64,000 nucleotides of DNA from Candidatus Magasanikbacteria bacterium GW2011_GWC2_37_14 (GCA_000990355.1 LBSX01000002.1:6000-69999); one strand, 5' to 3'. Shown: positions 1,500 through 19,630, numbered from the stretch's first letter. Numbers and translations: made by a program. Notes: generated by a model not told the origin, from the sequence alone.

Positions 1500-2129
1500 T
1501 TATTTCTTCTTTTTTGCAACAACTTTTTTTACAGCTGCTTTTGTTTTAGTTTTCTTTTCTTTTGTAGCTTCTTTTTCAACTACTTCTTTAACAACAGTTT
1601 CTTTGGTTTTTTTTGTTTCAGGTTTGCTTTCAGTAACAACTCCCAAAAACTTCATTAATTTATCAATTTTTACATGAAGTTGCTTGATTTGTTCTGTTAC
1701 GTCGCCATTATCTCTACTACCTCTGTTTTCGTCTTTTTTAAAGCAATTACTACAATATACAGGTTTATCAGTTGGTCGAAAAGGCACTTGGCAATTGTCG
1801 CCACATTTAGCGCAAGTAGCATCATGCATCTGGCGATCAGCACCAAAGTTTGGTCTTTCGCGACGGTCGCTGGCAAAATTACTTGGTCTACTGCCGCCAC
1901 CATTGTCTTGCTGTTTGCCAAAGCAATTACTGCAAAACACTGGACGTTCACCAGATGGTCTAAATGGTAATTCACAGTTGTCTCCACATTCACTGCAAAC
2001 AGCCTTAAAACGAGCTGGTTTATCTCCATCACGGTCAAATCTACCTCCACCGCCAAATGATTTACCGCCACCAAATTTACGGCCAAAACCACCACTAGAT
2101 TTTCGATCGTCTCTATTAAAATTTTTCAT
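1500..2129 (-). CDS. Putative nucleic-acid-binding protein: N-terminal RGG/Gly-Arg-rich region, two tandem CxxC-x-CxxC zinc ribbons (CxxCGDNCxxPFRP...PV(F/Y)CSNCF), C-terminal lysine-rich tail
   Basis: Two near-identical zinc-ribbon repeats. The GGFGRKFGGGKSFGGGGRF segment is RGG-like. The tail KKTKTKAAVKKVVAKKKK is histone H1-like. The gene is convergent with cspA. Confidence 0.6.
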   Translation of the reverse strand: MKNFNRDDRKSSGGFGRKFGGGKSFGGGGRFDRDGDKPARFKAVCSECGDNCELPFRPSGERPVFCSNCFGKQQDNGGGSRPSNFASDRRERPNFGADRQMHDATCAKCGDNCQVPFRPTDKPVYCSNCFKKDENRGSRDNGDVTEQIKQLHVKIDKLMKFLGVVTESKPETKKTKETVVKEVVEKEATKEKKTKTKAAVKKVVAKKKK

Positions 2130-2207
2130 ATTTCAATATTTTATATTAATTAAACAACAAGTGACCTAAGCTTACCACAGAATGGTATAAAAAACAAGGG
2201 GCGTGGT

Positions 2208-3380
2208 CTAAAAATGATTTGTTTGAGCTTCTTGATATAATTTTTCAAAAGCAAGAATAGTGGTAGAGACATCGTGTTTTTTAATAATTTCCAAACTTTC
2301 TTGGCCAAATTTTTGGCGTAAGTCACTATTTTCTAGTAATTGTTTAAGATAATTAGCCAATTCCAAATAGTTATTATCATTAAACAAAAAACCATTTTCA
2401 TTAGGGTAAACTAATTCTGGTAAAGCCAAAGCATTGGCAGCTACCACAGGTAAACTAGTAGCCATAGCTTCCATTGTTACCAAACTTTGTAATTCTGCAG
2501 TGCCAGCCATTACAAAAATATTTGCCAAAGGATAAACAAAAGGTAAGTCTTCGTCACTTACATATCCCAAAAATGTTACATTATTACTAATATTTAAATT
2601 TTTAGCCAAATTTTCCAAATTTTGTCTTTCATTACCATTGCCAGCAACTATAAAATGTATATCAATATTTTTTTTCAATTCTGCAACAGCGCGTAATACT
2701 GTATCAACATGTTTTTCTGGGGATAGACGATTAACTACTAAAATAGTTGGTTTGTTTGGTAAATTATGGCGTTTTTTTAAATAATCACTATTATTATTTG
2801 GATTAAATTTTTTCATGTCTATACCACAAGAGAGAGGAATAATTTCTTGAGTTAGGCCAATTTTTTTTAAAACATTAGCTGCTGTTTTGGTAGGTGTAGT
2901 AATAATGGGTAACTTGGAAAAATTTCTTTTAAAATGCCACCAGAGTAAATTATTTAAAAGTTTTTTTATTTTTTTTGGTAAAGCCACATAATGGGTTAAA
3001 TTATCTGGCATGAAGTGGTTGGTGGCCACAATTGGCAAATGATTTTTTTTGGCAATTTGTATTAAAGCATTTTCCACGAAAAAATGTCCTTGTACGTGAA
3101 TTACGTCAGGTTTAAAGTTTAAGACAACTGGTTCTAGATGTTTTAACAAACCAAAGGGTAAACTAAAACAATAATCTTTATGAAAGCCCGAGGGCCAAGA
3201 ACTAACCCCTAAAATATTAACTTGATTATGCGTAGAGTAAATGTCATTAAAACTTTTGCCAGGGGCAATTACTAGCACTTCGTGGCCTCGCAATACTAAT
3301 TGTTCGGCCAAGCGTTGCGTAAAATAAGAAGCACCGTCGATGTTTGGATAATAAGTATCTGCGCCGATAATAATTTTCAT
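2208..3380 (-). CDS. Glycosyltransferase family 4 (GT-B, group 1)
   Basis: N-terminal start MKIIIGADTYYPNIDGAS. C-terminal EAMATSLPVVAANALALPELV motif with E-x7-E-like region. 390 aa. Confidence 0.8.
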   Translation of the reverse strand: MKIIIGADTYYPNIDGASYFTQRLAEQLVLRGHEVLVIAPGKSFNDIYSTHNQVNILGVSSWPSGFHKDYCFSLPFGLLKHLEPVVLNFKPDVIHVQGHFFVENALIQIAKKNHLPIVATNHFMPDNLTHYVALPKKIKKLLNNLLWWHFKRNFSKLPIITTPTKTAANVLKKIGLTQEIIPLSCGIDMKKFNPNNNSDYLKKRHNLPNKPTILVVNRLSPEKHVDTVLRAVAELKKNIDIHFIVAGNGNERQNLENLAKNLNISNNVTFLGYVSDEDLPFVYPLANIFVMAGTAELQSLVTMEAMATSLPVVAANALALPELVYPNENGFLFNDNNYLELANYLKQLLENSDLRQKFGQESLEIIKKHDVSTTILAFEKLYQEAQTNHF

Positions 3381-3383
3381 AAT

Positions 3384-3977
3384 TTATTTGATAAGTTTTT
3401 TCTCTAAATAATTACCAATAAATAAATAGCCAATAAAGATTAAAATAATTATAACCGAAAAAATAATTGTGCCATAAGTTAAATAAGAATTAATTTTTTC
3501 TGAAAGTTGGCCAAGGTAATATCCAATGATTAAAAAAAATAAGGTTTTGGGTATGGTAGCCATTAAATCATATAAGAAAAAAAGCCACCAGTTTATTTTA
3601 ATTATACCAGCGGCTATAAGTATTGGTACTCCGGCCATGTGGGTGATTTTTCCAATGATTAGGGTTTTTCTAGGATGATTGTGAAAAATGTGTTTTAAAA
3701 AATTTAGACGTTTTTCTGACAATTTAGTAAAATTAGCATATTTTTCTGCGAGTTTTTTTCCACCCCAATAACCAGCTAAATAATAAAGACTGTCACTTAC
3801 CATTTCTGCGGCTATAATAATTACAAAAGCCAATAACCAATTAAACAAATCGTGAGCTAATAAAAAACCCACAAACATAGTTATTAGTGGGCCCTCAATA
3901 ATTACAAAAATAAAAACCAGCAAATAACGGTATATAGGTAAAAGTGTGGCAATTGTTGTTAGAGTTAAGAGGTCCAT
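3384..3977 (-). CDS. DedA/VTT-domain family membrane protein
   Basis: Multi-TM protein with the FVIIEGPLITMFVGF motif typical of DedA. Start moved to the internal Met at 3977 to limit overlap with the upstream gene. Confidence 0.55.
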   Translation of the reverse strand: MDLLTLTTIATLLPIYRYLLVFIFVIIEGPLITMFVGFLLAHDLFNWLLAFVIIIAAEMVSDSLYYLAGYWGGKKLAEKYANFTKLSEKRLNFLKHIFHNHPRKTLIIGKITHMAGVPILIAAGIIKINWWLFFLYDLMATIPKTLFFLIIGYYLGQLSEKINSYLTYGTIIFSVIIILIFIGYLFIGNYLEKKLIK

Positions 3978-3991
3978 TTTAATGTTATACA

Positions 3992-6583
3992 TTATATAGC
4001 AAATAAAAACCCATAACTCAAAGAAGTATAGGCCATATCTTGCCAAACAGTAAATTCATTCATATCCGGCATGCGGGCCCAAGGAGCATATTGTCGAAGG
4101 GCAGGAATATTTTTTGGGGTGGGATAAAAATTATTATACACCAAACAACCCCAAGCATCGGTAGGTTCACAATCGCCGTCATAATCTCGTGCATGGGGAC
4201 CATAAATAGGTAATCCAGGGACTGGTTTTTCTTGTTGGTCATACATAGAATTCAAATGTAGTGGAAATTCGGGATTTCTAATTCCTAATCCAGTTATCCA
4301 AGAAAGACCCAAAGGATTTTCTCCTAATTGATAATCAGCATTTAAAGAAATTGCGTCGATATATTTTTGATCTTTGGTAAAATAATATGCCATTGCAGTG
4401 CCAACAATACTTCTCATAGAGTTTGATCCCGAGCCCCAAGCAATTGCGTAATTAAAATTAGTAGAATTTTTATATTTATTTTCCATAATTTGTTCTACTT
4501 CGTCATTGCCAATTTCAATAATTCTATTTTTTACTTGTTCTTGAAAATCTCTGTCAACGTTGGTGCCATTGGCATTGCTATAACCCCAAAAAGAATAAAT
4601 ATTTGCAAACCAAGTAGGACCACGATAGGTTGGGTACAATTGTTTAAATACATTTTGATATTTTGTTTCATTGGTTAAAGCAAATAATTCTCCGGCGGCG
4701 TACATTTTTTCTCTTTCTAGTTCATTCAGTTTGTCTTCGTTACTTCTTTCTACAGGCGCTGTCGTGCCAAGGCTAGTTTGTTTTTCTGCCCAATCCCAAG
4801 CTTTCAAGGCTTTATTTTTTAAATCAGTGGCTTTGTTTTTTCCGGCGGGATAATTTTCCAAAATTCTCGCTAAATGTGCAGCTGCTCCGGCAAATTTATA
4901 AGAAGTCCATCTGTTTGGAGCATATGTCCAGTAGGGAAGTGTGTCACCCTCACATGTAGAAGAACCTGGGTGAGCATAACTCTCAACGCCAGCTCTTACT
5001 CCGCCGTCTGATTCTTGTAAAGTTTCCCATAATTTTATTCCCCATAAAGCTTCATCCAAAACATCTGGAATTTGGTTTCCACTTTCCGGAATATTTAATT
5101 GATTGTCTGTAAATTTATTAGGAAACATTTCTTGTAAGGTTGTTAAATCTTCGACAATTAGTAAATGCATTGGTCTTAAATCAAAATCACCAGCATCAAA
5201 CCAACCACCACTAATATTTATCGGGTTATTTTTGGAAGTATTTTTAGAAAATTTTTCACCAAAATCTTCCAATATATTTGTTTCAAATACTTGGTTCAGG
5301 CACATTTTATGAATCCAGTTGGTATATTTTGATTCTAGGGCTGTGCCAGCCCGTTGGTGGTACAAACCGCGAATTGCTGTATAAAAGGCTGTAAAAGCAG
5401 AATCTAGCCCTACGCTAAAGACAAGAGATCGACCAATTCCTTCTACCTCAAGATAATAATTACCTTCGTTTAAATCACTTAAATCTAATTCATATAAAAT
5501 TTCTCCACTTAGATTGTCCGATCCTAAGTTTGTTGATTTTCCCGAACTGACCAATTGTTTGGAACTGGCATTATACACTTGATAATTTAATTGTGTCGGC
5601 AATATTAAAGCACCGCCAGAACCTAACCAATAACCAACATAAGCATAGCGTTCTTTTGCTTTTAAAGAAAAACCATGTTGATTAATTTTAATAGCTTTGG
5701 CAATTTGCAAATCTTTGCCAGGCATTAAATTCCAAGAAGAAAATTGTTCATTGGAAAAATAACCAATTGTTCCGTTATAAACATATTTTTTACCTGTTGG
5801 GTTAATAAGTTCTACTGTATAATTTTGATCATTTTTTAATTCTTTAGGTAAAGTTAAATACAAAGTATGTCTTAAAACAACGTCGGCTTGGTTTTGGCCG
5901 TTATAATCTCTGTCTTCAGCATCTAATACTGCCGAAAATCGATCAATTTTTGTAGGATGAACAATATTTTTGTAATTTATATCACTAGTAGAAATAATAT
6001 TCCAATTGTTTGCATTCATTATAAAATTTAAATCAATTTCACCATCAAAAATTACTTCCGCTATTTTATTAGTAATTAGTCCAATTGAATTATTTTTTAT
6101 TACGACTTCAGAAGTAGTAAATTCACTGTCTGGATATATTTCCGAGTTGTTTATGGTTAATATTCTGTCCCAGCGATAGCCCAAATTATTAAAAGCAGTT
6201 TCATTAGCAATGTGTTTTTTTAATAAAATTCCTTTTTCACTGTATTCTAAGCGATAAACTTTATTACTATTAGCATATTTTATAATTGTAAATTCTGGGT
6301 GATGGTCAGTGTAATTTATTTCACCGGCAGTTTCGTATTTATTTAATAATTCGACATCAATATTTTCAATCCAATTCCAAGGGTATTTTAAAGAGTTAAA
6401 AATATTTTCAGATTTTATCCAATATTTTTTATTGTTCAATAATATATACACCTTTGGGTCGTTGGGAATTTTTACCAAAGCGCCATGCAGGGTGTTATTA
6501 ATAGAAAATGCTTTTGGCACAAACAATACAAAGGCAAAAACTAAGTTTAAAACAATTAAACTAAATATTTTTCTTTTATTCAT
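3992..6583 (-). CDS. Secreted glycoside hydrolase, GH9-like (alpha/alpha)6 catalytic domain, with N-terminal signal peptide and Ig-like/beta-sandwich region
   Basis: Signal peptide MNKRKIFSLIVLNLVFAFVLFVPKAFS. The GGWFDAGDFDLRP motif matches the GH9 signature GGWYDAGD. C-terminal YQLGENPLGLSWITGLG matches the GH9 C-terminal region. Confidence 0.6.
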   Translation of the reverse strand: MNKRKIFSLIVLNLVFAFVLFVPKAFSINNTLHGALVKIPNDPKVYILLNNKKYWIKSENIFNSLKYPWNWIENIDVELLNKYETAGEINYTDHHPEFTIIKYANSNKVYRLEYSEKGILLKKHIANETAFNNLGYRWDRILTINNSEIYPDSEFTTSEVVIKNNSIGLITNKIAEVIFDGEIDLNFIMNANNWNIISTSDINYKNIVHPTKIDRFSAVLDAEDRDYNGQNQADVVLRHTLYLTLPKELKNDQNYTVELINPTGKKYVYNGTIGYFSNEQFSSWNLMPGKDLQIAKAIKINQHGFSLKAKERYAYVGYWLGSGGALILPTQLNYQVYNASSKQLVSSGKSTNLGSDNLSGEILYELDLSDLNEGNYYLEVEGIGRSLVFSVGLDSAFTAFYTAIRGLYHQRAGTALESKYTNWIHKMCLNQVFETNILEDFGEKFSKNTSKNNPINISGGWFDAGDFDLRPMHLLIVEDLTTLQEMFPNKFTDNQLNIPESGNQIPDVLDEALWGIKLWETLQESDGGVRAGVESYAHPGSSTCEGDTLPYWTYAPNRWTSYKFAGAAAHLARILENYPAGKNKATDLKNKALKAWDWAEKQTSLGTTAPVERSNEDKLNELEREKMYAAGELFALTNETKYQNVFKQLYPTYRGPTWFANIYSFWGYSNANGTNVDRDFQEQVKNRIIEIGNDEVEQIMENKYKNSTNFNYAIAWGSGSNSMRSIVGTAMAYYFTKDQKYIDAISLNADYQLGENPLGLSWITGLGIRNPEFPLHLNSMYDQQEKPVPGLPIYGPHARDYDGDCEPTDAWGCLVYNNFYPTPKNIPALRQYAPWARMPDMNEFTVWQDMAYTSLSYGFLFAI

Positions 6584-9858: not shown

Positions 9859-9865
9859 TTATAAG

Positions 9866-9937
9866 CTCGGGAGGTGGGGATCGAACCCACGACCATCACG
9901 TTAACAGCGTGCCGCTCTACCGCTGAGCTACTCCCGA
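9866..9937 (-). tRNA. tRNA-Asn (anticodon GTT)
   Basis: Manually folded cloverleaf. Acceptor stem TCGGGAG/CTCCCGA. D-arm GCTC-AGCGGTA-GAGC. Anticodon loop CTGTTAA (U33, GTT, A37). T-arm GTGGG-TTCGATC-CCCAC. Discriminator G. U1-A72 as in E. coli tRNA-Asn. CCA is not encoded. Confidence 0.85.
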
Positions 9938-10095
9938 ATATAAAATGTCTGTGTATTCACAGAAACTATGAACACATTAAATACCTTATACTTAAAGTGC
10001 GAAGCGGTACCACTGCCTGCCCGCCAAGCTTGCTGGTGATTGCGCCGGATGGTTGTGGTGTGAACCGAGAGGCGGGGGCTACTCCCGAATATAAA
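9927..10095. repeat. 18-bp direct repeat (GCTACTCCCGAATATAAA at 9927-9944 and 10078-10095) bracketing an insert of about 133 bp that includes a GC-rich palindromic block (9999-10077)
   Basis: Exact duplication of the tRNA-Asn 5' end plus upstream flank. Internal stem CCCGCC/GGCGGG and an AAGCTT palindrome. Confidence 0.6.
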
Positions 10096-10220
10096 TTGTT
10101 GGTATACTGTAAAATTGTGGTGAAATTATAACAAATAAAAAAACCAGTGTCAATAAGGATTATTAACAAGACGGCCAAAATTTTTGATTTATTTAAATTT
10201 AATGCTAAAATATATCTACT

Positions 10221-10778
10221 ATGTCAGACAATAAATATTTAAACATCGTAAACGAAGCTGGCCAAATTATTGGTGAAGATTCTCGGGAAAATATTCATAA
10301 AAATGGTTTGCTACATCGCGAAGTTCATGTTTGGTTTTATACCCCTCAAGGTGAGATTATTTTGCAACACCGTGGTAAAAATGCCGAGACTTTTCCTGAT
10401 TTGTTATATGTTACTGTGGGTGGTCATGTAGAAATAGGAGAGGATTTCGAGCAAGCCGCTCTAAAAGAAGTACAAGAAGAAACAGGTGTAAAATTAAAAA
10501 TTAGTGATTTAGTTTTGGTATATAAAGCTCACGCGCCAATTGATACTGACACTGTTACTCATAAAATAAATAATACCATAAGAGCAGTTTACGTTTATTG
10601 TTATCGAGGAGCAATCAAAGATTTACAAACAGAAAAAGGTGTAGGGCAAGGTTTTGAAGTATGGCCTTTGACAAGAATATTAAATATTTCAAATGAAGAC
10701 CGAATAAAATTAATTTTTAGTATTTTAAAAGAACCAGCTTTGGGAATTTTAAAAAAGATTCAAACAATGATAAAATAG
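10221..10778 (+). CDS. Nudix hydrolase (IDI/YfcD-like)
   Basis: Nudix box GGHVEIGEDFEQAALKEVQEETGV. Confidence 0.8.
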   Translation: MSDNKYLNIVNEAGQIIGEDSRENIHKNGLLHREVHVWFYTPQGEIILQHRGKNAETFPDLLYVTVGGHVEIGEDFEQAALKEVQEETGVKLKISDLVLVYKAHAPIDTDTVTHKINNTIRAVYVYCYRGAIKDLQTEKGVGQGFEVWPLTRILNISNEDRIKLIFSILKEPALGILKKIQTMIK

Positions 10779-10806
10779 ATTTAATTTAATTCATAAGTAT
10801 AAAACT

Positions 10807-11205
10807 ATGAAAGGCTACAAAAACAATATCGAAAAATTAACTCTAGAAAATGAAAATTTTCGCCAAGTGCTTTATACTGGCAAAAATTGTCAATTAGTCT
10901 TAATGACTTTAAAACCAAATGAGGAAATTGGTATGGAAGTGCATAGTGAAAACGACCAGTTTTTTCGTTTTGAAAGTGGAACTGGTAAAGTAGTAATTGA
11001 TGGCAATGAACAAGTAGTGGGCGATGGTGACGCGGTAATTGTACCAATGGGTGCAGAACACAATATTATAAATACCTCAACGACAGAAGCCTTAAAACTT
11101 TACACTATTTATGCTCCACCACACCATGCCGATGGTACAATACACCCTACCAAAGAAATAGCTTTGGCCGATGATGAAGAATTTGACGGTGTTACAACTG
11201 AGTAG
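10807..11205 (+). CDS. Cupin-domain protein
   Basis: Cupin_2-like motifs (HSENDQFFRFESGTG...GDAVIVPMGAEHNIIN). Confidence 0.65.
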   Translation: MKGYKNNIEKLTLENENFRQVLYTGKNCQLVLMTLKPNEEIGMEVHSENDQFFRFESGTGKVVIDGNEQVVGDGDAVIVPMGAEHNIINTSTTEALKLYTIYAPPHHADGTIHPTKEIALADDEEFDGVTTE

Positions 11206-11207
11206 TT

Positions 11208-11402
11208 ATGAATGGACAAAATCGTGCTGACATAAAAATTGGCTTGGCAGTGGAAATAGTTTTGAAAGCTGATCAAAGAACTGGTAAACTGACCAAGGGG
11301 ATTGTTGCAGAAATTTTAACGAGTTCAAGTTTTCACCCACATGGCATAAAAGTGAGATTGGCAGACGGTCAAGTGGGTAGGGTGGCCAAGATAATTGATT
11401 AA
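11208..11402 (+). CDS. YwbE-family small protein (DUF2196-like)
   Basis: 64 aa with the GIVAEILTSSSFHPHGIKVRLADGQVGRV pattern typical of the YwbE family. Confidence 0.55.
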   Translation: MNGQNRADIKIGLAVEIVLKADQRTGKLTKGIVAEILTSSSFHPHGIKVRLADGQVGRVAKIID

Positions 11403-11410
11403 TAATATTT

Positions 11411-12049
11411 ATGATTTATTTAATTGGCGCACCGCCCAGATGTGGCAAGACCACTTTGGCCAAAAAAATGTCTAAGCAAATGAGAATTCCTTGGCTGTCT
11501 TCTGATACTCTGGATTCCATAACCCAAGTATTAACAACAAAAGGAAAATTTGCTAAAAAATTTCCTTATTCTTTTTTGCGAAAAAAAGGCAGTGCCAAAA
11601 ACAATGATTCGTTTTATAATGTCTACTCACCAGAAAAAATAGTTAGTGTTTTAAAAAAAGAAGCCGAGGCAGTTCATTTAGCGATTGATACTGTAATTGC
11701 TTGTGAAATAGCCGACGGCAATGATTATATTATTGAAGGTTATCATTTATTGCCTGGTTTTGTTAATAAAATGATTAAAAAGTATGGTAAACAAAATATT
11801 CGGGCAGTTTTCTTAACTAAGTTTGATGCGAATAAATTTGCCGTAGATGTTCACAAAAGTACCACGCCCAATGATTGGTTACTGGTTTTAACTAAAAAGC
11901 CAGAAACTTTTATTAAAGTTGGCAAAATGGTTTCTGCTTTTAGTAAATATTTTGAGCAGGAGGCAAAAAAGTTTGGTTTACAGACTTTTAATACTGATAT
12001 AAATTTTATTAGACAGATTTTTGAAGCTATAAAATGTTTAAAAGCTTAA
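11411..12049 (+). CDS. P-loop NTPase/small-molecule kinase-like protein
   Basis: Walker A GAPPRCGKTT at the N-terminus. Size and layout resemble nucleotide/2-phosphoglycerate/chloramphenicol-type kinases. Confidence 0.5.
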   Translation: MIYLIGAPPRCGKTTLAKKMSKQMRIPWLSSDTLDSITQVLTTKGKFAKKFPYSFLRKKGSAKNNDSFYNVYSPEKIVSVLKKEAEAVHLAIDTVIACEIADGNDYIIEGYHLLPGFVNKMIKKYGKQNIRAVFLTKFDANKFAVDVHKSTTPNDWLLVLTKKPETFIKVGKMVSAFSKYFEQEAKKFGLQTFNTDINFIRQIFEAIKCLKA

Positions 12050-12052
12050 TGT

Positions 12053-12493
12053 ATGAGCGATATTATATATTCAACAATGAAAAATTCAGAAGAAATTGAA
12101 TTTTTACGAGACAGAAGATCATTTAATTATTCATTCAACAAAGTTACAATGGATTCGCTAGAAAAGCATTTTAGACTAAAAGACAGCTTGTATTTGTTGG
12201 CTAAAAAAGAAGAAAGATTTGTGGCTTTTTGCTCTATTGATCGAGGGTGGTGGGAAGAAAATTTCTTTTTTATTCGTGAAATTTTGGTAGATCCAGACTT
12301 CCATAAGAGAGGAATAGGTGAAAAATTAATGAGTATGTGTATAGAACATGCAAAAAACTGTGGTACCGTGGGCGTTGTGACTGAAACAGATTTTGTAAAT
12401 ATTCCCATGCAAAAACTTTGTGAAAAACTAGGTTTTACGAAATGGGAAAATCCGCAATGGAAAGAGGGGATAACTTATAAATTGATTTTTTAG
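12053..12493 (+). CDS. GNAT-family N-acetyltransferase
   Basis: Acetyl-CoA binding motif HKRGIGEKLM. Confidence 0.7.
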   Translation: MSDIIYSTMKNSEEIEFLRDRRSFNYSFNKVTMDSLEKHFRLKDSLYLLAKKEERFVAFCSIDRGWWEENFFFIREILVDPDFHKRGIGEKLMSMCIEHAKNCGTVGVVTETDFVNIPMQKLCEKLGFTKWENPQWKEGITYKLIF

Positions 12494-12494
12494 T

Positions 12495-13460
12495 ATGAAA
12501 ATGAACAGCAATACAATAAAAATTATCAAAGCCGAACCAAAAGATGTGTTGGGTATTGCAGAAGTAAAAAAAGTTACCTGGCTTGCAACATATCCCAATA
12601 AAAAAGCTGGGATAACAATTGAGGATTTACAAAAAAGTAATTTTTTTGATATAGAAAAAATTAAACGGCGACAAAAAGAGATAAGAGAAAATATAAATCG
12701 TCAATTTTGGGTTGCCAAAGATGATAAAAAGACAGTTGGTTTTTGTGGGGCAATGAGAGAAAAAGAAAAATATGAAATTGGTGCTATCTATGTTTTACCA
12801 GAATATCAGGGTCAGGGGATTGGTAAGATGTTCATTGATAAGGCATTTGTCTGGCTTGGTGGTAATAGAGATATTATCGTTAAAGTGGTAAGCTATAATA
12901 AACAGGCGATTAATTTTTATAAAACAGTAGGCTTTAAGTTGGCTAAAGGAGTTAAAAAGTCTGAATGGCATAAATTGGCGTGTGGCAAATTACTTCCCGA
13001 GATTGAGATGTTAAGAAAGGGTGTAAAATGCAAACTTGCAACAATAAATGATACAAAAATACTTTTGAAACTAAACAGCCTTCTTGACCTAGAAGAAAAA
13101 AATAAAAAGGAAAAAATAAGTGAAGCAGTTAAAAAGAAATTAATTTGGGTTGCTGAGTGTGATAAAAAAATTGTCGGGTATGTTCTTGTTAGACTGTTTG
13201 ATAAAATGCACGAACAACTACCAAATTCTGTTTTTCTTTCTGATTTGTGTGTGCTAGATAACTATCGCGGGCAGGGTATTGGTAGAATGTTGGTACAGAA
13301 AACATTGGATAAAAAATATCCTAAACAATATCATTATTTTTCATTAACACACGATCCAAAAGAAAAAGATTTAACTAATTTTTATAAAACTTTTGGTTTT
13401 AAAGTGAAAGGAAAAACTAAAGCTGGGAATGTTAAGTTGGTTAAAAATATAATTGTATGA
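12495..13460 (+). CDS. Tandem GNAT acetyltransferase (two GNAT domains)
   Basis: Two Q/RGQGIG motifs (QGQGIGKMF and RGQGIGRML), each in a domain of about 150 aa. Confidence 0.7.
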   Translation: MKMNSNTIKIIKAEPKDVLGIAEVKKVTWLATYPNKKAGITIEDLQKSNFFDIEKIKRRQKEIRENINRQFWVAKDDKKTVGFCGAMREKEKYEIGAIYVLPEYQGQGIGKMFIDKAFVWLGGNRDIIVKVVSYNKQAINFYKTVGFKLAKGVKKSEWHKLACGKLLPEIEMLRKGVKCKLATINDTKILLKLNSLLDLEEKNKKEKISEAVKKKLIWVAECDKKIVGYVLVRLFDKMHEQLPNSVFLSDLCVLDNYRGQGIGRMLVQKTLDKKYPKQYHYFSLTHDPKEKDLTNFYKTFGFKVKGKTKAGNVKLVKNIIV

Positions 13461-13870
13461 AAAATAATTACGACTGGGAAAGTGTTGGTTTGGATTTTGG
13501 AAATTGGGATGAAGAAAAAATATGGGCGTTAAATTTGACTGTTGTAGAAATAGACATTAATGAATTGTTGTGGCATTTTGATGCTCCTTGGTGGCCAAAT
13601 GATACCGATGAACGGTGGACTGTTACTCCTTGGGATGTGTTGAATAAAACAGTAGATAGTAAAAAACAACAAGATATTACAGATCAAGTTGATCTTTCTT
13701 ATCCTATTGATATCTTTAAGAATAAAGGTAAGTGGCTTATTTTGGATGGGATTCACCGTCTGGTAAAATCATATAAACAGGGTTTAAAGAAAGTTAAGGT
13801 ACATATCATTCCACCAGAGAGGCTTCCTGAAATTTTGTCCGGTTTACCAATTGAGTTACCTAATAGTTAA
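13457..13870 (+). CDS. Hypothetical protein with possible ParB/sulfiredoxin-like DGxHR motif
   Basis: WLILDGIHRLVKSY resembles the ParB/Srx DGHHR motif. ATGA overlap with the upstream gene. Confidence 0.35.
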   Translation: MKNNYDWESVGLDFGNWDEEKIWALNLTVVEIDINELLWHFDAPWWPNDTDERWTVTPWDVLNKTVDSKKQQDITDQVDLSYPIDIFKNKGKWLILDGIHRLVKSYKQGLKKVKVHIIPPERLPEILSGLPIELPNS

Positions 13871-13879
13871 TTTCTTTTT

Positions 13880-14464
13880 ATGAAAAAAATAATTCCAATA
13901 ATAAATTGCGCCACCCGACTGGCATTAGTAAATAGAACGGTTGGTTATCGTGACGGCCATTTTGAGAATGACGCCGAACATAGTTATCAACTAGCCTTGG
14001 CTTGTTGGGCGGCAAATAAACAATATAATCTTGGCCTAAATGATGAATTAATACTTAAATTTGCGTTGATACATGATTTGGTTGAGGTGTATGCCGGTGA
14101 TGTAGATGCTTTTGGCGATCCACAACAAATTGTTTTGAAAAAGGAAAATGAGAAAAAAGCCTTCGCGAAATTAAAAACAGAATTTGGTCAATTTGAGGAC
14201 ATCATAGGTATGATTGAAAAGTATGAAGAAAGAAAAGAAATTGAAGCCGAGCTGGTTTATGTATTTGATAAGCTGATCACGGATGTTAATATTTATAATA
14301 GCAAAGGAGATTATTATAAGAGTAGAAAAATTGGCGTAGACGGGTGGAAAAGTTGGTTTTTAAATAAAATAAATTACGATTCATTAGATCTGAAGCTTAA
14401 GCCACTAGTAGATGAATCAATAAAAGAAGTAGAGGAAAATTTTAAGAGTAGTTTTTATGGATAA
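13880..14464 (+). CDS. HD-domain phosphohydrolase (YfbR-like 5'-deoxynucleotidase family)
   Basis: H...HD motif (EHSYQLALACWAA...LIHDLVEVYAGD). Confidence 0.7.
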   Translation: MKKIIPIINCATRLALVNRTVGYRDGHFENDAEHSYQLALACWAANKQYNLGLNDELILKFALIHDLVEVYAGDVDAFGDPQQIVLKKENEKKAFAKLKTEFGQFEDIIGMIEKYEERKEIEAELVYVFDKLITDVNIYNSKGDYYKSRKIGVDGWKSWFLNKINYDSLDLKLKPLVDESIKEVEENFKSSFYG

Positions 14465-14499
14465 TACTATAATAAATGAAATTTTTTAAATAATTAACT

Positions 14500-15159
14500 A
14501 TGAAACTACTTCTTACATCCGCTGGTTGGGGAGAGAGCCCGGTGATTGGTCAGAAATTTTTGAAATTGGTTGGAAAAAAGCCTTCTGAAATTAGGATATT
14601 TTTAGTGGTGACCCCAATTAAATATCTTAAACGAAATAAATATATTTTGAACCAACTGTTGCAGTTCAAAGGAATTAAGATACCAGAGAAAAATATTACT
14701 TTTTTCAAATTAGATAGAAAACTCGCACCAGATGATTTGAAAAATATAGATGTTGTTTTTGTCTTTGGGGGAAACACTTTTGAATACTTAGACAGAATTA
14801 AAAAAACTGGCTTAGATAAAATTATTAAAAGTTTTGTTAAAAAAGGTGGTGTTTATTTGGGATTAAGTGCTGGCAGTTATGTTGCTTGTCCCACAATTGA
14901 AATGGCGACTTGGAAAAATGCTGACCCTAATTTGATTGGTCTTAAAAATTTAAAAGGTTTGGATATCGTGCCTTTTTTGGTTACCGCTCACTTTGAAGAA
15001 AAATGGCGTGAGGTCATTGAGCAGAGTGCTAAGAAAACAAAATACCAAACTATTGCCTTAACAGACAAACAAGCAATTTTGGTAAAAGGGAAAAGCATAA
15101 AGATAATTGGTAGTGGCAAGAAAAATATTTTTAATGGTAAAAAATACCAAAGTAATTAA
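14500..15159 (+). CDS. Peptidase S51 (dipeptidase E / cyanophycinase-like) family protein
   Basis: VVFVFGGNTFEYL...GVYLGLSAGSYVACPTIE (nucleophile Ser in the GLSAGS motif). Confidence 0.6.
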   Translation: MKLLLTSAGWGESPVIGQKFLKLVGKKPSEIRIFLVVTPIKYLKRNKYILNQLLQFKGIKIPEKNITFFKLDRKLAPDDLKNIDVVFVFGGNTFEYLDRIKKTGLDKIIKSFVKKGGVYLGLSAGSYVACPTIEMATWKNADPNLIGLKNLKGLDIVPFLVTAHFEEKWREVIEQSAKKTKYQTIALTDKQAILVKGKSIKIIGSGKKNIFNGKKYQSN

Positions 15160-15241
15160 AATGAAATTAATTTTATAAATTCCTTCTATCGTGCTATAAT
15201 TTATTAAACACAGTTTATTAATATAAATTAAACTAATATTT

Positions 15242-16564
15242 ATGTTAGAATCAATCGCTTTTAAACTATTTTTGTCAATACTAATTGGTGCCGCTATTGG
15301 TCTAGAAAGACAAAGTGGAGCTACACAAGAAGCACCTGGTGGTATTAGAACTTTTTCCATTGTCTCATTAATGGGTGCTTTAGGAGGAGTACTCCTTACT
15401 TCGGGTGCTAATGTGTTGTTTGCCATAATGAGCGCATTTGTGGCACTGTTAATTTTGGCTTATTATGTTATTTATTCATTAAAATCAAACAAACTTGGTT
15501 TTACCAACGAACTGGCAGTATTTTTTGCATATCTTTTGGGCTTTTTAGTAACTGCCTCTAGTCTATCATTACAAGTTGTGATTGCAATTTTTGTAGTTGT
15601 GCTTTTAATTTTATCTTTTAAACACAAAGTTAAGCACTTCATGGCTAGAGTTTCTCGGAGTGAAACAGAGTCTTTTATTAGTTATGCTATTATTGCTTTG
15701 GTAGTTATGCCATTTTTACCGAATACCGCTATTCATGTTAGTGATATTCCACTTTTACAAACTATTCTAAATGGTTATCAAATAAATTTAGGCGCTTTTG
15801 GTAGTATGGAAATATTTAATCCTCGAAATATTTGGTATATTGTAGTTTTGGTAACTGGTATTGATGTTTTTGGTTATTTATTGGGTAAATTATTTGGCAA
15901 CAAACGTAGTTTTGTTCTTACTAGTTTAATTGGTGGCTTTATTTCTTCTACTTCTACAACTATAGCGATGGCCAATAAAAGTAAAAAAGGTGGTGTGGTT
16001 AATCATTTGGTAGGGGCGACGTTAATTGCCAATATGGCCAGTATTTTTCCAATTTTTTTATTGGTTGGGCCAATAAATGGAGCCTGGTTAGCGACAATTG
16101 TTCCGACATTGGTTTTAGTTATTTTAAGTGCAGCTATTTTAGGAGCTGTTTTTCTCTTAAAAAAGACTGAAAAAAAAGATGAGGCAAATAAATTGGATAC
16201 TTCTGCAGAAAAGAAGGGTAAAGTGTTTTCATTAATGCCAGCTTTAAAATTTGCTCTTATTTTAATTGCAGTAAAATTTGTTACCAAAATTTGTTTAGTG
16301 GTTTTTGGTAACTCAGGATTTATAATTAGTTCAATGATTGCTTCGCTCGCTGGTTTAGATGCCATAGTTATAAATTTGGCAGACATGGCGGGTAAGACTA
16401 TTACTTTTCATACAGCTTTATTCACTCTTATCTTGGTAAGTGCTACCAACATGGTTGGCAAAATGGTCTATTCATTTATTCAAGGAAAAGGCTCATTTGC
16501 TCTCAAATTATCACTCTCCTTAGCTGTGGTTATTGGTGTAAGTTTTATAGGTCTATTTATTTAA
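15242..16564 (+). CDS. MgtC/SapB-family membrane protein with C-terminal DUF4010-like domain
   Basis: N-terminal ILIGAAIGLERQ MgtC signature, then a polytopic TM region. Confidence 0.6.
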   Translation: MLESIAFKLFLSILIGAAIGLERQSGATQEAPGGIRTFSIVSLMGALGGVLLTSGANVLFAIMSAFVALLILAYYVIYSLKSNKLGFTNELAVFFAYLLGFLVTASSLSLQVVIAIFVVVLLILSFKHKVKHFMARVSRSETESFISYAIIALVVMPFLPNTAIHVSDIPLLQTILNGYQINLGAFGSMEIFNPRNIWYIVVLVTGIDVFGYLLGKLFGNKRSFVLTSLIGGFISSTSTTIAMANKSKKGGVVNHLVGATLIANMASIFPIFLLVGPINGAWLATIVPTLVLVILSAAILGAVFLLKKTEKKDEANKLDTSAEKKGKVFSLMPALKFALILIAVKFVTKICLVVFGNSGFIISSMIASLAGLDAIVINLADMAGKTITFHTALFTLILVSATNMVGKMVYSFIQGKGSFALKLSLSLAVVIGVSFIGLFI

Positions 16565-16589
16565 TTGACTTTGCATTTATAAGAAAAAA

Positions 16590-16626
16590 TATTTAAACAT
16601 CTCAACCTAACTGAGATGTTTTTTAA
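16590..16626 (+). terminator. Rho-independent terminator
   Basis: AACATCTCA/TGAGATGTT stem followed by TTTTTT. Confidence 0.6.
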
Positions 16627-16654
16627 CCCTTTTATTTTCAATTAGTGCTGGGGG

Positions 16655-16683
16655 TTGACAAACAATTAAATTTTCGCTATAAT
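16655..16683 (+). promoter_or_regulatory. Sigma70-like promoter TTGACA-17-TATAAT upstream of typA
   Basis: Perfect consensus hexamers at 16655-16660 and 16678-16683, 15 nt before the typA ATG. Confidence 0.6.
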
Positions 16684-16697
16684 TAGGCAATTCTTAT

Positions 16698-18512
16698 ATG
16701 CAGATTAGAAATATTGCCATTATTGCCCACGTAGACCACGGTAAAACCAAATTAACCGATGGTTTGTTGCGTTTTACTGGCATGGTTACGGACGAAAGTG
16801 TAAGTATGGATTCTAATGCTTTGGAGCAAGAACGTGGCATTACAATTTATTCCAAAAATACTTCTGTTTTTTATAAAGGAACAAAAATTAATATTGTGGA
16901 CACTCCTGGTCACGCTGATTTTGGCTCCGAAGTAGAACGTGTACTTCGTTCCATTGATTCAGTATTATTGGTTGTTGATGCACAAGAAGGTCCGATGCCT
17001 CAAACAAAATTTGTCTTAAAAAAATCATTAGATTTGGGTTTAAAGCCGATTGTGGTGATTAACAAAATAGATAAAGCCGCCGCTCGACCCGAATGGACTC
17101 ATGATAAGGTTTTGGAATTATTTATGGATTTGGGTGCCAATGATGCACAATTAAATTTTACTACTGTTTATGCCATTGCAAAAAATGGCATTGCCAAAAG
17201 AAATTTAGCCGATGAAAGTAATGATTTAGCACCTTTACTTGATACAATTTTAGAAGTTGTTGAACCAGCCAAGGTAGACACCACATTGCCATTTACTTTT
17301 CAACCTTTTAATTTGGCTTATGATAATTACTTGGGTCGTTTAGGTATTGGCCGTATTTATCAAGGCACTTTAAAAGCTAATGACCGAGTGTTTGATAAAA
17401 AAGTTGACGGTGAAATAATTTCTGGTAGTGTAAATAAAATTTTTACTTTTGAAGGCATGGCTCGCAAAGAGGTAAGTGAAGTGATTGCTGGCGACATTGT
17501 CATGGTTGCCGGTCTTCCCGAAATTTATATTGGTGATACTGTTTGTGCCAACAAAGATCAAGAAACTTTACCAGCGATTAGTGTAGATGAACCAACCATT
17601 TGTCTTAATTTTTTGGTAAATAATTCTCCTTTTGCCGGACGTGAAGGTAAATATGTAACCAGTCGCCAAATTAAAGAACGTTTGGAAAAAGAATTAGAGG
17701 TAAATGTAGGTTTAAAAATTGATTTTTCGGCTACTGACTACTATAAAGTTTATGGTCGTGGTGAATTGCATATTGCAATTTTATTAGAAAATATGCGCCG
17801 CGAAGGTTTTGAAGTACAAGTTTCGCAACCACAGGTAATTATTAAGGAAATTCCTTCGGCAAGCTCAGGACAAGTAATTAAATGTGAACCTTTTGAAGAA
17901 ATTACCGTAGATATTCCCGATAATTGTGTGGGTGGAGTAATTGAAAAATTATCCAAACGTAAAGCGGTAATGACAGAAATGCGTCCTGAAGGTAATCATA
18001 CTCGTTTACTCTTTATTATTCCTACTCGCGGACTCTTGGGTTATCGCAATGAATTTATTGTGGATACTCGTGGTGAAGGAATTTTATGTAGTGAAATGAT
18101 TGGATTTCAACCCTATGTTGGTGAAATAGAAAAACGCGATGTAGGTTCCATGATTTCTGGTGAAACTGGTAAAGTGTTGGCTTATTCATTGGCCAATTTA
18201 CAAGATCGCGGTGTATTGTATGTAGCACCAAATGTAGATGTTTATACTGGACAAGTAATTGGCAATACTGCCAAGGGTCAAGATATGACCGTTAACCCTA
18301 TTAAAGGTAAGCATCTCACCAATATGCGTTCTTCCAATTCAGATATGGCAGTGCAATTAACTCCGCCAATGGATTTATCACTAGAAAGAGCCATGGAAGT
18401 AATGGCTGAAGATGAATTTTTGGAAATTACTCCCAAAAGTATTCGCTTGCGTAAACAATTTTTAACCGAAAATGATCGGATTCGGCAAGAAAGAAAAGAA
18501 GCTAAAGAATAA
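16698..18512 (+). CDS. typA: Translational GTPase TypA/BipA
   Basis: G1 [11 protein letters not shown]3 DTPGH, NKID. 604 aa, EF-G-like architecture. Confidence 0.9.
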
Positions 18513-18513
18513 A

Positions 18514-18542
18514 TCGCCAAAACTGGCGATTTTTTTTTATTT
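18514..18542 (+). terminator. Rho-independent terminator after typA
   Basis: ATCGCCA/TGGCGAT hairpin followed by T9. Confidence 0.7.
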
Positions 18543-18578
18543 ATGCTAAACTGTGCTAGTTATAACTAAATTTATTTT

Positions 18579-19163
18579 ATGTCAAAAGAAATCGTTTTGG
18601 ATATTGAAACCATTGGCGATATTCGTGATTTTAATAGTTTAAAAGTTACTGTTGTTTCTATTTATGAATATGAAACCGATAAATATACTAGTTTTGTAGA
18701 ATCTGAATTAGGAAATTTGTGGCCAATTTTGGAAAAAAGCGAACGGATAATTGGTTACAATAGTGAACATTTTGATTTGCCAATATTAAATAAATATTAT
18801 GCTGGGGATCTTTTAAAATTTCCCCAATTAGATATATTAAAAGTAATCAAAGAAACTAGTGGTTCACGTTTTAAATTAAATGATATTGCTAAAGCTACCT
18901 TGCAAATCGAAAAAAGTGCCGATGGTTTACAAGCCATGAAATGGTGGGAAGAGGGGAAAGTGGATGAAATCAAAAAATATTGTGAGCAAGATGTAAAAGT
19001 TACCAAAGAGATTTATGAATATGGTCGCAAAAATAAAATGTTGTATTTCTTTACTCTCACCGGCGACCTTACACCAATTGCGGTGAATTTTGAGCCAATA
19101 CCACAATCCACAACAAAAAATGGTAGTACCGTCTCCAATATCAATTTAACCCTGCCCTTGTAG
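18579..19163 (+). CDS. DEDDy-type 3'-5' exonuclease-like protein (RNase H fold, PolB-exonuclease related)
   Basis: Exo I LDIETIG, Exo II IGYNSEHFDLPIL, Exo III YCEQDVKVTKEIY. Confidence 0.5.
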   Translation: MSKEIVLDIETIGDIRDFNSLKVTVVSIYEYETDKYTSFVESELGNLWPILEKSERIIGYNSEHFDLPILNKYYAGDLLKFPQLDILKVIKETSGSRFKLNDIAKATLQIEKSADGLQAMKWWEEGKVDEIKKYCEQDVKVTKEIYEYGRKNKMLYFFTLTGDLTPIAVNFEPIPQSTTKNGSTVSNINLTLPL

Positions 19164-19193
19164 TTGACATCTCATACTTAGATAGTATATAAT
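19164..19193 (+). promoter_or_regulatory. Sigma70-like promoter (TTGACA ... TATAAT) upstream of the Rrf2/Fe-S operon
   Basis: TTGACA at 19164-19169, TATAAT at 19188-19193 (18-nt spacer). Confidence 0.4.
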
Positions 19194-19219
19194 GAATTTA
19201 CTTTTATATACTTATTTAT

Positions 19220-19630
19220 ATGTTACAATTCAACAAAGAAGTAGACTATGCTTTGCAACTGCTTTTGGCATTAAAAAGTTTACCCGAAGGCCAGCTTTTG
19301 AGTTTAAGAAATTTTTCTAAAGGTAGTAAAATTTCTTTTTTATTTTTACAGCGTATCGCCTTTAAATTAAAAAATTCAGGAATTGTTAAGTCCGTAAAGG
19401 GGGCGCAAGGGGGTTATTATTTAGCCCAAAAACCACAAAAAATTACTTTTAAGAATGTGGTTGATTCTTTGGAAGGGGAATGTGTGGTAGCCAATTGTTT
19501 GCGAGCAGGTTTTTGTTGTGAAAAACAAAAGACTTGCAAGGTGCACGATGTTTTTTTCAATATCAACACCAAAATTTTGGAATATTTAAGTGCTATAAAT
19601 CTAGGTACAATTGCTAATTATGACAAATAA
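19220..19630 (+). CDS. Rrf2-family transcriptional regulator (IscR-like)
   Basis: N-terminal wHTH (VDYALQLLLALKS) and a C-terminal Cys cluster (CLRAGFCCEKQKTC). Confidence 0.7.
   Translation: MLQFNKEVDYALQLLLALKSLPEGQLLSLRNFSKGSKISFLFLQRIAFKLKNSGIVKSVKGAQGGYYLAQKPQKITFKNVVDSLEGECVVANCLRAGFCCEKQKTCKVHDVFFNINTKILEYLSAINLGTIANYDK

Follow-up and report, generated by a model that had tools for sequence, protein, structure and literature searches.

Gene flux within the Patescibacteria, or Candidate Phyla Radiation (CPR), is common (PMC12455944), and the closest described counterparts of the locus considered here are the 'genomic islets' of these bacteria. The locus is a cluster of nine ATG-initiated open reading frames (ORFs), designated g1 to g9, at positions 10221-15159 on the plus strand of a 64-kb stretch (the window) from the groundwater CPR bacterium Candidatus Magasanikbacteria GW2011_GWC2_37_14, and it was compared with metagenome contigs of relatives (designated by L numbers). 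Like the islets, the cluster is made of small enzymes, its content differs between close relatives, and homologues of its genes are found interspersed with genes for Fic, RhuM, Bro-N, SocA, and zeta toxin. Unlike them, it has no integrase, attachment (att) site, compositional anomaly or linkage to the 3' end of a tRNA gene, and it appears to be old in the family, eroding and reshuffling rather than recently inserted. The single genes also have described counterparts, such as the Escherichia coli YfcD-type Nudix hydrolases, the YfbR-type HD 5'-deoxynucleotidases, the archaeal 2-phosphoglycerate kinases, the ParB/Srx single-domain proteins, and the PepE/S51 peptidases. We propose that the nine genes probably represent a lineage-specific, reshuffled, co-directional array of functionally independent small enzymes that are likely co-transcribed.

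An earlier note, made from the sequence alone, had listed nine genes on one strand with gaps from -4 to 35 nt and had assigned a domain to each, and the ORF coordinates, Pfam and NCBIfam confirm this description, with every ORF lying where it had been placed. Identities were judged by Pfam gathering cut-offs and by the cut-offs of NCBIfam curated equivalogs. The nine genes are as follows:

10221-10778, plus strand: g1, Nudix hydrolase, YfcD-like, not an isopentenyl-diphosphate isomerase (IDI) (PF00293, 53.6 bits vs. a cut-off of 21.1)
10807-11205, plus strand: g2, single-domain cupin (PF07883 Cupin_2, 61.2 bits; phrog_13536, E = 6e-30)
11208-11402, plus strand: g3, YwbE family protein (DUF2196; TIGR03833, 112.8 bits vs. 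a cut-off of 63.4, over profile positions 1-61 of 62)
11411-12049, plus strand: g4, P-loop small-molecule kinase of a CPR-wide family labeled 2-phosphoglycerate kinase (2PGK)-like, with no Pfam family; the conserved anchor of the cluster
12053-12493, plus strand: g5, single-domain GNAT acetyltransferase (PF00583, 62.8 bits; all NCBIfam equivalogs far below threshold)
12495-13460, plus strand: g6, tandem GNAT with two acetyltransferase domains (two stretches matching PF13508 and PF00583; 111.2 bits over both domains)
13457-13870, plus strand: g7, protein of the ParB/Srx fold whose N-terminal half is Trp-rich and whose LDGxHR motif is invariant (alignment and AlphaFold2 (AF2)/Foldseek)
13880-14464, plus strand: g8, HD_3 phosphohydrolase, distantly YfbR-like (PF13023, 72.2 bits vs. 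a cut-off of 22.5)
14500-15159, plus strand: g9, Peptidase_S51, PepE-like, of the type-1 glutamine-amidotransferase fold (PF03575, 88.9 bits vs. 23.9)

Catalytic motifs are intact in all nine, among them the Nudix box, Walker A, GNAT motif A, DGIHR, HD, and GLSAG.

As to gene order, the closest relative found is a sister lineage represented by a 5-kb metagenome contig (L095), with 96% amino acid identity for BipA, 91% for g4 and 89% for g3. When compared to the window by blastn, this contig shares 11201-12033 (g3-g4, 86% nucleotide identity) and 16586-19604 (BipA, an RNase H-like protein and Rrf2; 89%), while the DNA in between is replaced and a different gene precedes g3. The replaced DNA and the gene for a membrane protein that it includes are:

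12034-16585, plus strand: variable segment of 4.55 kb with g5-g9 and the MgtC/DUF4010 gene, missing from L095, which has a 655-nt segment for a LysE-type translocator instead (Pfam LysE)
15242-16564, plus strand: MgtC/DUF4010 membrane protein (Pfam), downstream of g9 and part of the variable segment

A comparison with relatives had been suggested in the earlier note, for which an operon conserved and core across the lineage would have spoken against its view; no such operon was found, as L095 lacks g5-g9. In more distant relatives the same families appear in other company. One example is L176, with the order MFS-g4 (73%)-g7 (69%)-unknown-MgtC (76%). Another example is L177 (Logan SRR22388057_418, 2047-4147), with an asparaginase gene followed by g4 (79%), a kinase of the aminoglycoside phosphotransferase (APH) fold (307 aa), and a 390-aa S51::GNAT fusion that joins an orthologue of g9 (71%) to the N-terminal GNAT domain of g6 (73%). 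No second case was seen among the S51 homologues, more than 100 of which stand alone, and the fusion could be genuine or could have arisen in assembly. L097 and L098 have Fic-g4 (75%)-g9 (73%), L101 has methyltransferase-g4 (75%)-g7 (65%)-LOG, L103 has g4-GNAT, and L110 has g4-Bro-N-GNAT. In two other Magasanikbacteria (L087, 3961-8442, and L094, 3826-8438) the order is RluD-g4 (58-59%)-Gmk-L19-g7 (70-71%)-EngB-GIY-YIG, so that the g4 and g7 families are here surrounded by housekeeping genes for translation and nucleotides, and L114 likewise has RluD-g4-Gmk-L19. The identities of the partner genes track that of g4 in these relatives (in L176, for example, 69% for g7 and 76% for MgtC at 73% for g4), as vertical descent with rearrangement would have it, and the simplest history is therefore that of an old g4-anchored neighborhood, differentially lost, interrupted and re-ordered, in which case the arrangement of L095 would be a derived state.

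Synteny at the BipA locus is less telling. Among GTDB species representatives, identity to the BipA protein reaches 81% at most, the best matches all belonging to Magasanikbacteria or Patescibacteria, and in 80 such representatives none of the nine genes is found upstream of BipA. As the flanking genes upstream of BipA are not conserved in these 80 either, synteny at this locus alone cannot separate an island from a general loss of synteny.

One could still propose that the nine genes form a housekeeping operon, conserved and core in the lineage, as the families of g4 and g9 are large, well conserved and CPR-wide, g4 and g7 stand among housekeeping genes in some relatives, and the composition is native. 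However, the order is not conserved even in L095, the cluster occupies the BipA locus in 0 of the 80 species representatives, and the neighbors of g4 are almost maximally diverse, and so this proposal is barely credible. The last point comes from a Pfam census of the genes closest to g4 in 80 metagenome loci, two in either direction. Downstream, 98 families were counted among 109 genes, the most frequent being S51 (5), followed by GNAT, Fic, RhuM, and Bro-N (3 each). The upstream side gave 108 families for 112 genes, with methyltransferases, helix-turn-helix (HTH) proteins, nucleotidyltransferases, zeta toxin, Nudix, and GNAT among them. When densities near g4 were tested against 1.14 Mb of control CPR DNA (BipA loci), no cluster family was significantly enriched, S51 coming closest (4 ORFs vs. 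1, p = 0.07).

Homologues of the other genes are similarly scattered. Those of g7 are also found beside ArsR/ArsP, among alpha/beta-hydrolases, and beside restriction-modification, AbiU2 and ParAB genes, and a g9 homologue of 77% identity comes after FtsEX. For g2, homologues with 65-70% identity lie close to BipA (L077) and close to g4 (L171). A g6 homologue of 58% identity adjoins a serine recombinase and a Rep gene (L179, 1356-4080; 3.9 kb from a serine recombinase/HTH_17/Phage_rep_O cassette), this being the sole association with a mobile element seen for any cluster family. The 'eclectic mix' of which the earlier note spoke is supported. Homologues of g4, g6, g7, and g9 occur in many unrelated contexts, which speaks against a conserved core operon. 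In the contigs L095 to L174, g4 homologues are often found beside genes of toxin-antitoxin, mobile or defense type (Fic, RhuM, Bro-N, HTH-SocA/Panacea, zeta toxin, an EcoRI-type methylase, nucleotidyltransferases), which suggests that g4 often borders variable regions of CPR genomes.

The variability among relatives would also fit a very different proposal, the one made originally, of a horizontally acquired island at a tRNA locus that carries an antibiotic- or xenobiotic-modifying kinase and acetyltransferases along with enzymes of nucleotide repair. A tRNA gene is indeed nearby, though it is a single one and on the opposite strand:

9865-9937, minus strand: tRNA-Asn(GTT) (ARAGORN; Rfam tRNA, 67 bits)

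Islands usually integrate at the 3' end of a tRNA gene. Here it is the 5' end that faces the cluster, and the 3' end faces away, toward the CNNM gene. No integrase or recombinase is encoded near the cluster in the window, and no att-like direct repeats bracket it, the only repeats being short AT-rich chance ones and a 29-nt duplication of the 5' end of the tRNA that does not flank the cluster. The GC content of the nine genes is 0.338, not significantly different from the 0.325 of the other 49 genes in the window. In comparisons with plasmids the single similarity is a 120-nt stretch of the YwbE gene, and no plasmid resembles the cluster; no element-level match was found to phages or viruses (PHROGs, viral contigs, phages), and no system was recognized by PADLOC, which gave isolated weak matches to PDC-S07 (E = 2e-4), PDC-M11A (1e-5), and mad8 (6e-3). 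Only the variability among relatives fits a tRNA-associated island, and the position cannot be called a typical one.

The functional half of the same proposal fares no better. When g5 and g6 were scored against the NCBIfam resistance models, the best scores were 29-36 vs. a cut-off of 360 for Sat3, 25-33 vs. 140-265 for the aminoglycoside acetyltransferases AAC(6'), and 23-41 vs. 170 for ArsN1, all 3- to 10-fold below the cut-offs, and no gene of the cluster reaches the equivalog cut-off for AAC, Sat, chloramphenicol phosphotransferase (CPT), APH, IDI, PepE or 2PGK. The kinase g4 has a generic nucleoside monophosphate (NMP)/gluconate-kinase fold and matches no CPT or APH family of Pfam, so that the suggested modification of antibiotics or xenobiotics is not borne out for either the kinase or the acetyltransferases. 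The g4 family is CPR-wide and in some relatives stands among housekeeping genes (RluD-g4-Gmk-L19), which also counts against a role in resistance. Finally, g4, g7, and g9 are CPR-native, their divergence tracking that of their neighbors, and the more distant contigs L176 and L177 suggest that g4 was long accompanied by g7, g9, g6, and MgtC before these were lost by the sister lineage. All considered, an acquired resistance island is very unlikely.

Taken one by one, the genes come near no equivalog cut-off for a resistance or pathway enzyme. The g1 protein has an intact Nudix box (GHVEIGEDFEQAALKEVQEETGV), in which K takes the place of R in GX5EX7REUXEEXGU, and the closest relative in the Protein Data Bank (PDB) is YfcD (2fkb, E = 2.9e-10), but the score against the YfcD equivalog is 51.5 bits vs. 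a cut-off of 152. The earlier description of this gene as an IDI-like Nudix therefore holds as to Nudix and not as to IDI: the type-1 IDI models were considered and rejected at 53.3 bits vs. 127 (NF002995) and 38.5 vs. 105.8 (TIGR02150), and PDB matches to IDI reach only approximately 1e-4. For the YwbE/DUF2196 family of g3, no function was found in the papers searched. The nearest PDB entry to g5 is a putative streptothricin acetyltransferase (3pp9, E = 1e-6), and the PDB matches of both g5 and g6 are generic GNAT structures only. The acetyl-CoA-binding motifs of g6 are QGQGIG and RGQGIG, and its score against RimI is 73.8 bits vs. a cut-off of 86.4. The match of g8 to YfbR is weak (25.6 bits vs. 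122 for the equivalog NF003009), its PDB match being an HD protein from structural genomics (3kh1, E = 1e-7), with YfbR weaker. The g9 protein shares with PepE and the S51 peptidases the domain PF03575, the GxSAG motif (here the nucleophile motif GLSAG), and structure matches to PepE and Lmo0363, but it scores below the cut-offs for both PepE (NF003642, 64.2 bits vs. 156) and cyanophycinase (40.7 vs. 126.6); its family counts more than 100 stand-alone CPR homologues of approximately 217 aa each.

Two of the families, those of g4 and g7, have no Pfam model. The g4 family comprises at least 489 clusters across Patescibacteria, with members of approximately 211 aa, a mean column identity of 67%, and an invariant N-terminal Walker A. 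Its best NCBIfam matches are archaeal 2PGK, PRK12338, and mevalonate-3-phosphate 5-kinase, and members of the family are labeled '2-phosphoglycerate kinase' by JGI. An assignment as 2PGK was rejected, as both NCBIfam equivalogs are far below threshold (NF003259, 40 bits vs. 343; NF008994, 15.3 vs. 603), and so were CPT (no Pfam CPT match and a generic P-loop kinase fold of the NMP/gluconate-kinase type) and APH (no PF01636 match, the structural model showing a P-loop NMP-kinase fold). The annotation with profile models that the earlier note had proposed for this kinase, with CPT, 2PGK or an APH-like enzyme as its candidates, therefore ended in none of the three.

The g7 family comprises 85 clusters, nearly all from CPR plus one from a DPANN archaeon, with a Pfam domain in 0 of the 85, and it is essentially missing from IMG/VR. 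The LDGxHR motif is invariant across 52 aligned sequences. The AF2 model has a pLDDT of 92.7, and all top Foldseek matches belong to the ParB/Srx superfamily (best probability 1.00, E from 6e-4 to 1e-2), namely sulfiredoxin (6ky4, E = 6e-4), the ParB N-domain, SbnI, Noc, and SerK. The early naming of g7 as a ParB/Srx-like DGxHR protein is thereby confirmed. While the motif and the fold are shared with the ParB/Srx single-domain proteins, g7 differs from them in having no ParB_N match at the sequence level, no HTH or other DNA-binding domain, no catalytic Cys motif of Srx (DGIHR being present instead), and a unique Trp-rich N-terminal half of approximately 65 residues. The Srx motif is GCHR. 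A role as a chromosome- or plasmid-partition ParB was rejected, as g7 is a single-domain protein of 137 aa and no ParA is encoded in the cluster.

Since g4 and g7 are met together more than once, we also considered whether the cluster is a coherent module, with the g4 kinase and g7, as a ParB/Srx-like NTP-dependent protein, at its core, the S51 peptidase and a GNAT acting on a shared peptide- or aminoacyl-nucleotide-like substrate, and the Nudix and HD enzymes clearing nucleotide products. The two genes lie on the same strand, with g4 no more than 1.5 kb upstream of g7, in four arrangements (the window, L101, L176, and L087/L094), S51 comes directly or nearly after g4 in L097, L098, L127, L154, L164, and L177, the fusion in L177 joins S51 (g9) to the N-terminal GNAT domain of g6, and the 4-nt overlap of g6 and g7 is compatible with translational coupling. 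However, of the 53 g4 loci whose sequence extends 1.5 kb or more downstream, one has g7, L176 was selected through the apparent co-location of g4 and g7 matches and so is a biased sample, and all four cases come from related lineages, in which the linkage may have been inherited. Moreover, g7 occurs without g4 in L088, L089, and L090, the excess of S51 near g4 does not reach significance, the fusion stands alone among its homologues, and the sister lineage keeps g4 without these partners. A coherent module of this kind is thus unlikely, if worth keeping in mind. The narrower notion, of g4 and g7 as an unrecognized two-protein phosphotransfer or NTP-dependent module, we regard as quite doubtful as well, as the cases are few, partly biased in their selection and close to one another in phylogeny. 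If it were true, the cluster would be a remnant of an ancestral g4-anchored module to which the S51 peptidase and a GNAT had been added, as hinted by the single fusion.

Returning to the array of independent enzymes, its tight packing says little by itself. From g1 to g9 the intergenic gaps are 28, 2, 8, 3, 1, -4, 9, and 35 nt. Outside the cluster, same-strand gaps in the window have a median of 5 nt, 66% of the gaps are 35 nt or shorter, and runs of 7 and of 13 genes with gaps of 35 nt or less are also present. All genes in 10221-57780, a block of approximately 47 kb, are on the plus strand. Close co-directional spacing of nine genes is therefore the genome-wide norm and nothing special, and the cluster is distinctive only by its small genes (median 185 aa vs. 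333 aa). The sign of the GC skew changes at approximately 10 kb and 58 kb, the exact points where gene orientation flips, and because the two switch together, the skew tracks the coding strand.

Of the features expected of an operon, the common strand and the short gaps are present, and the gene order among relatives is not conserved. A candidate promoter precedes g1:

10184-10211, plus strand: candidate promoter of the cluster, TTGATT-16-TAAAAT with TG (consensus scan, 9 of 12 matches; predicted), 9 nt before the ATG of g1

A transcript starting from this candidate site would be near-leaderless. Promoter-like sites were also found by consensus scan before MgtC (15172-15200) and before BipA (16655-16683, a perfect 12/12 match). 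A terminator scan across the nine genes gave no convincing candidate, the sole terminator-like site being weak and inside g4, and g1 to g9 could plausibly form a single transcription unit. No purine-rich motif resembling a Shine-Dalgarno sequence is present within 25 nt upstream of the starts of g1-g9, MgtC, and BipA (11 of 11 genes), and translation of these eleven genes would evidently be initiated without reliance on a canonical Shine-Dalgarno sequence.

Several observations weigh against an array of independent native enzymes. GC at third codon positions (GC3) is 0.266 in the nine genes vs. 0.230 in the other 49 (p = 0.014), and a codon-adaptation index derived from the remainder of the window stands at 0.649 vs. 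0.682 (p = 0.024). The earlier note had suggested a comparison of codon usage and GC with the core genome, and the outcome is mixed, GC being native and GC3 and codon usage differing marginally; with the values for GC, GC3, and the codon index all inside the range of the other window genes, this is unconvincing as a signal of an island. The presence of g7 near g4 in four arrangements, of S51 in five loci, and of GNATs and MgtC as well, could reflect functional coupling, and the one-contig fusion of the orthologues of g9 and the N-terminal part of g6 could likewise mean functional coupling and not just shared ancestry. Presence and absence were read from the 64-kb window and from fragmentary metagenome contigs, and co-transcription is a prediction.

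With these points in mind, the following picture may be drawn for the array. It would occupy a variable stretch between a divergent tRNA-Asn/CNNM block and a housekeeping block that starts at BipA, with g3-g4 (the YwbE protein and the CPR-wide P-loop kinase) as the stable anchor, around which genes from a small native CPR repertoire (GNATs, g7, HD, S51, MgtC, cupin, Nudix) would have come, gone, and changed places on the time scale of family-level evolution. The enzymes most likely work independently of one another, each in the housecleaning of metabolites and nucleotides or in the modification of small molecules: the Nudix and HD enzymes may hydrolyze phosphorylated nucleotides or metabolites, the GNATs may acetylate amines, and the S51 peptidase may hydrolyze Asp-type dipeptides.

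Two further observations concern the surroundings of the cluster. Between tRNA-Asn and g1 (9956-10153, minus strand) there is a perfect sigma70-type promoter, TTGACA-17-TATAAT, at 10153-10125, followed by a 29-nt copy of the region upstream of tRNA-Asn and its first 11 nt (10078-10106 vs. 9927-9955, 86% identical). The two 29-nt copies flank a GC-rich spacer of 122 nt, with a GC-rich stretch of approximately 90 nt in a genome of 33% GC. A structured non-coding RNA was considered for the GC-rich element at 9997-10092 and found no support, with no match by ARAGORN or Rfam (E <= 1) and a fold z-score of 0.41; the element between tRNA-Asn and g1 may represent a tRNA copy in decay or an unrecognized small RNA. 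Further upstream, a gene of 863 aa with CelD_N and glycoside hydrolase family 9 domains (endoglucanase-type) is found at 3992-6583 on the minus strand, adjoining GT4 glycosyltransferases and a VTT-domain protein (Pfam).

Overall, the locus carries a caution for the interpretation of CPR genomes. As nearly all genes of these bacteria are close-set and share a strand, any series of small genes with tiny gaps mimics an operon, and a neighboring tRNA gene makes it mimic an island, while neither follows. The occasional linkage of g4 and g7 is the sole mildly novel lead, and the locus brings forward for biochemical study two widespread CPR families, the g4 kinase and the ParB/Srx-like g7 protein. 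As for the biology of the organism, the locus, if it is the reshuffled array that it probably is, shows a reduced genome that keeps a shifting set of small housecleaning and modification enzymes around a stable anchor.

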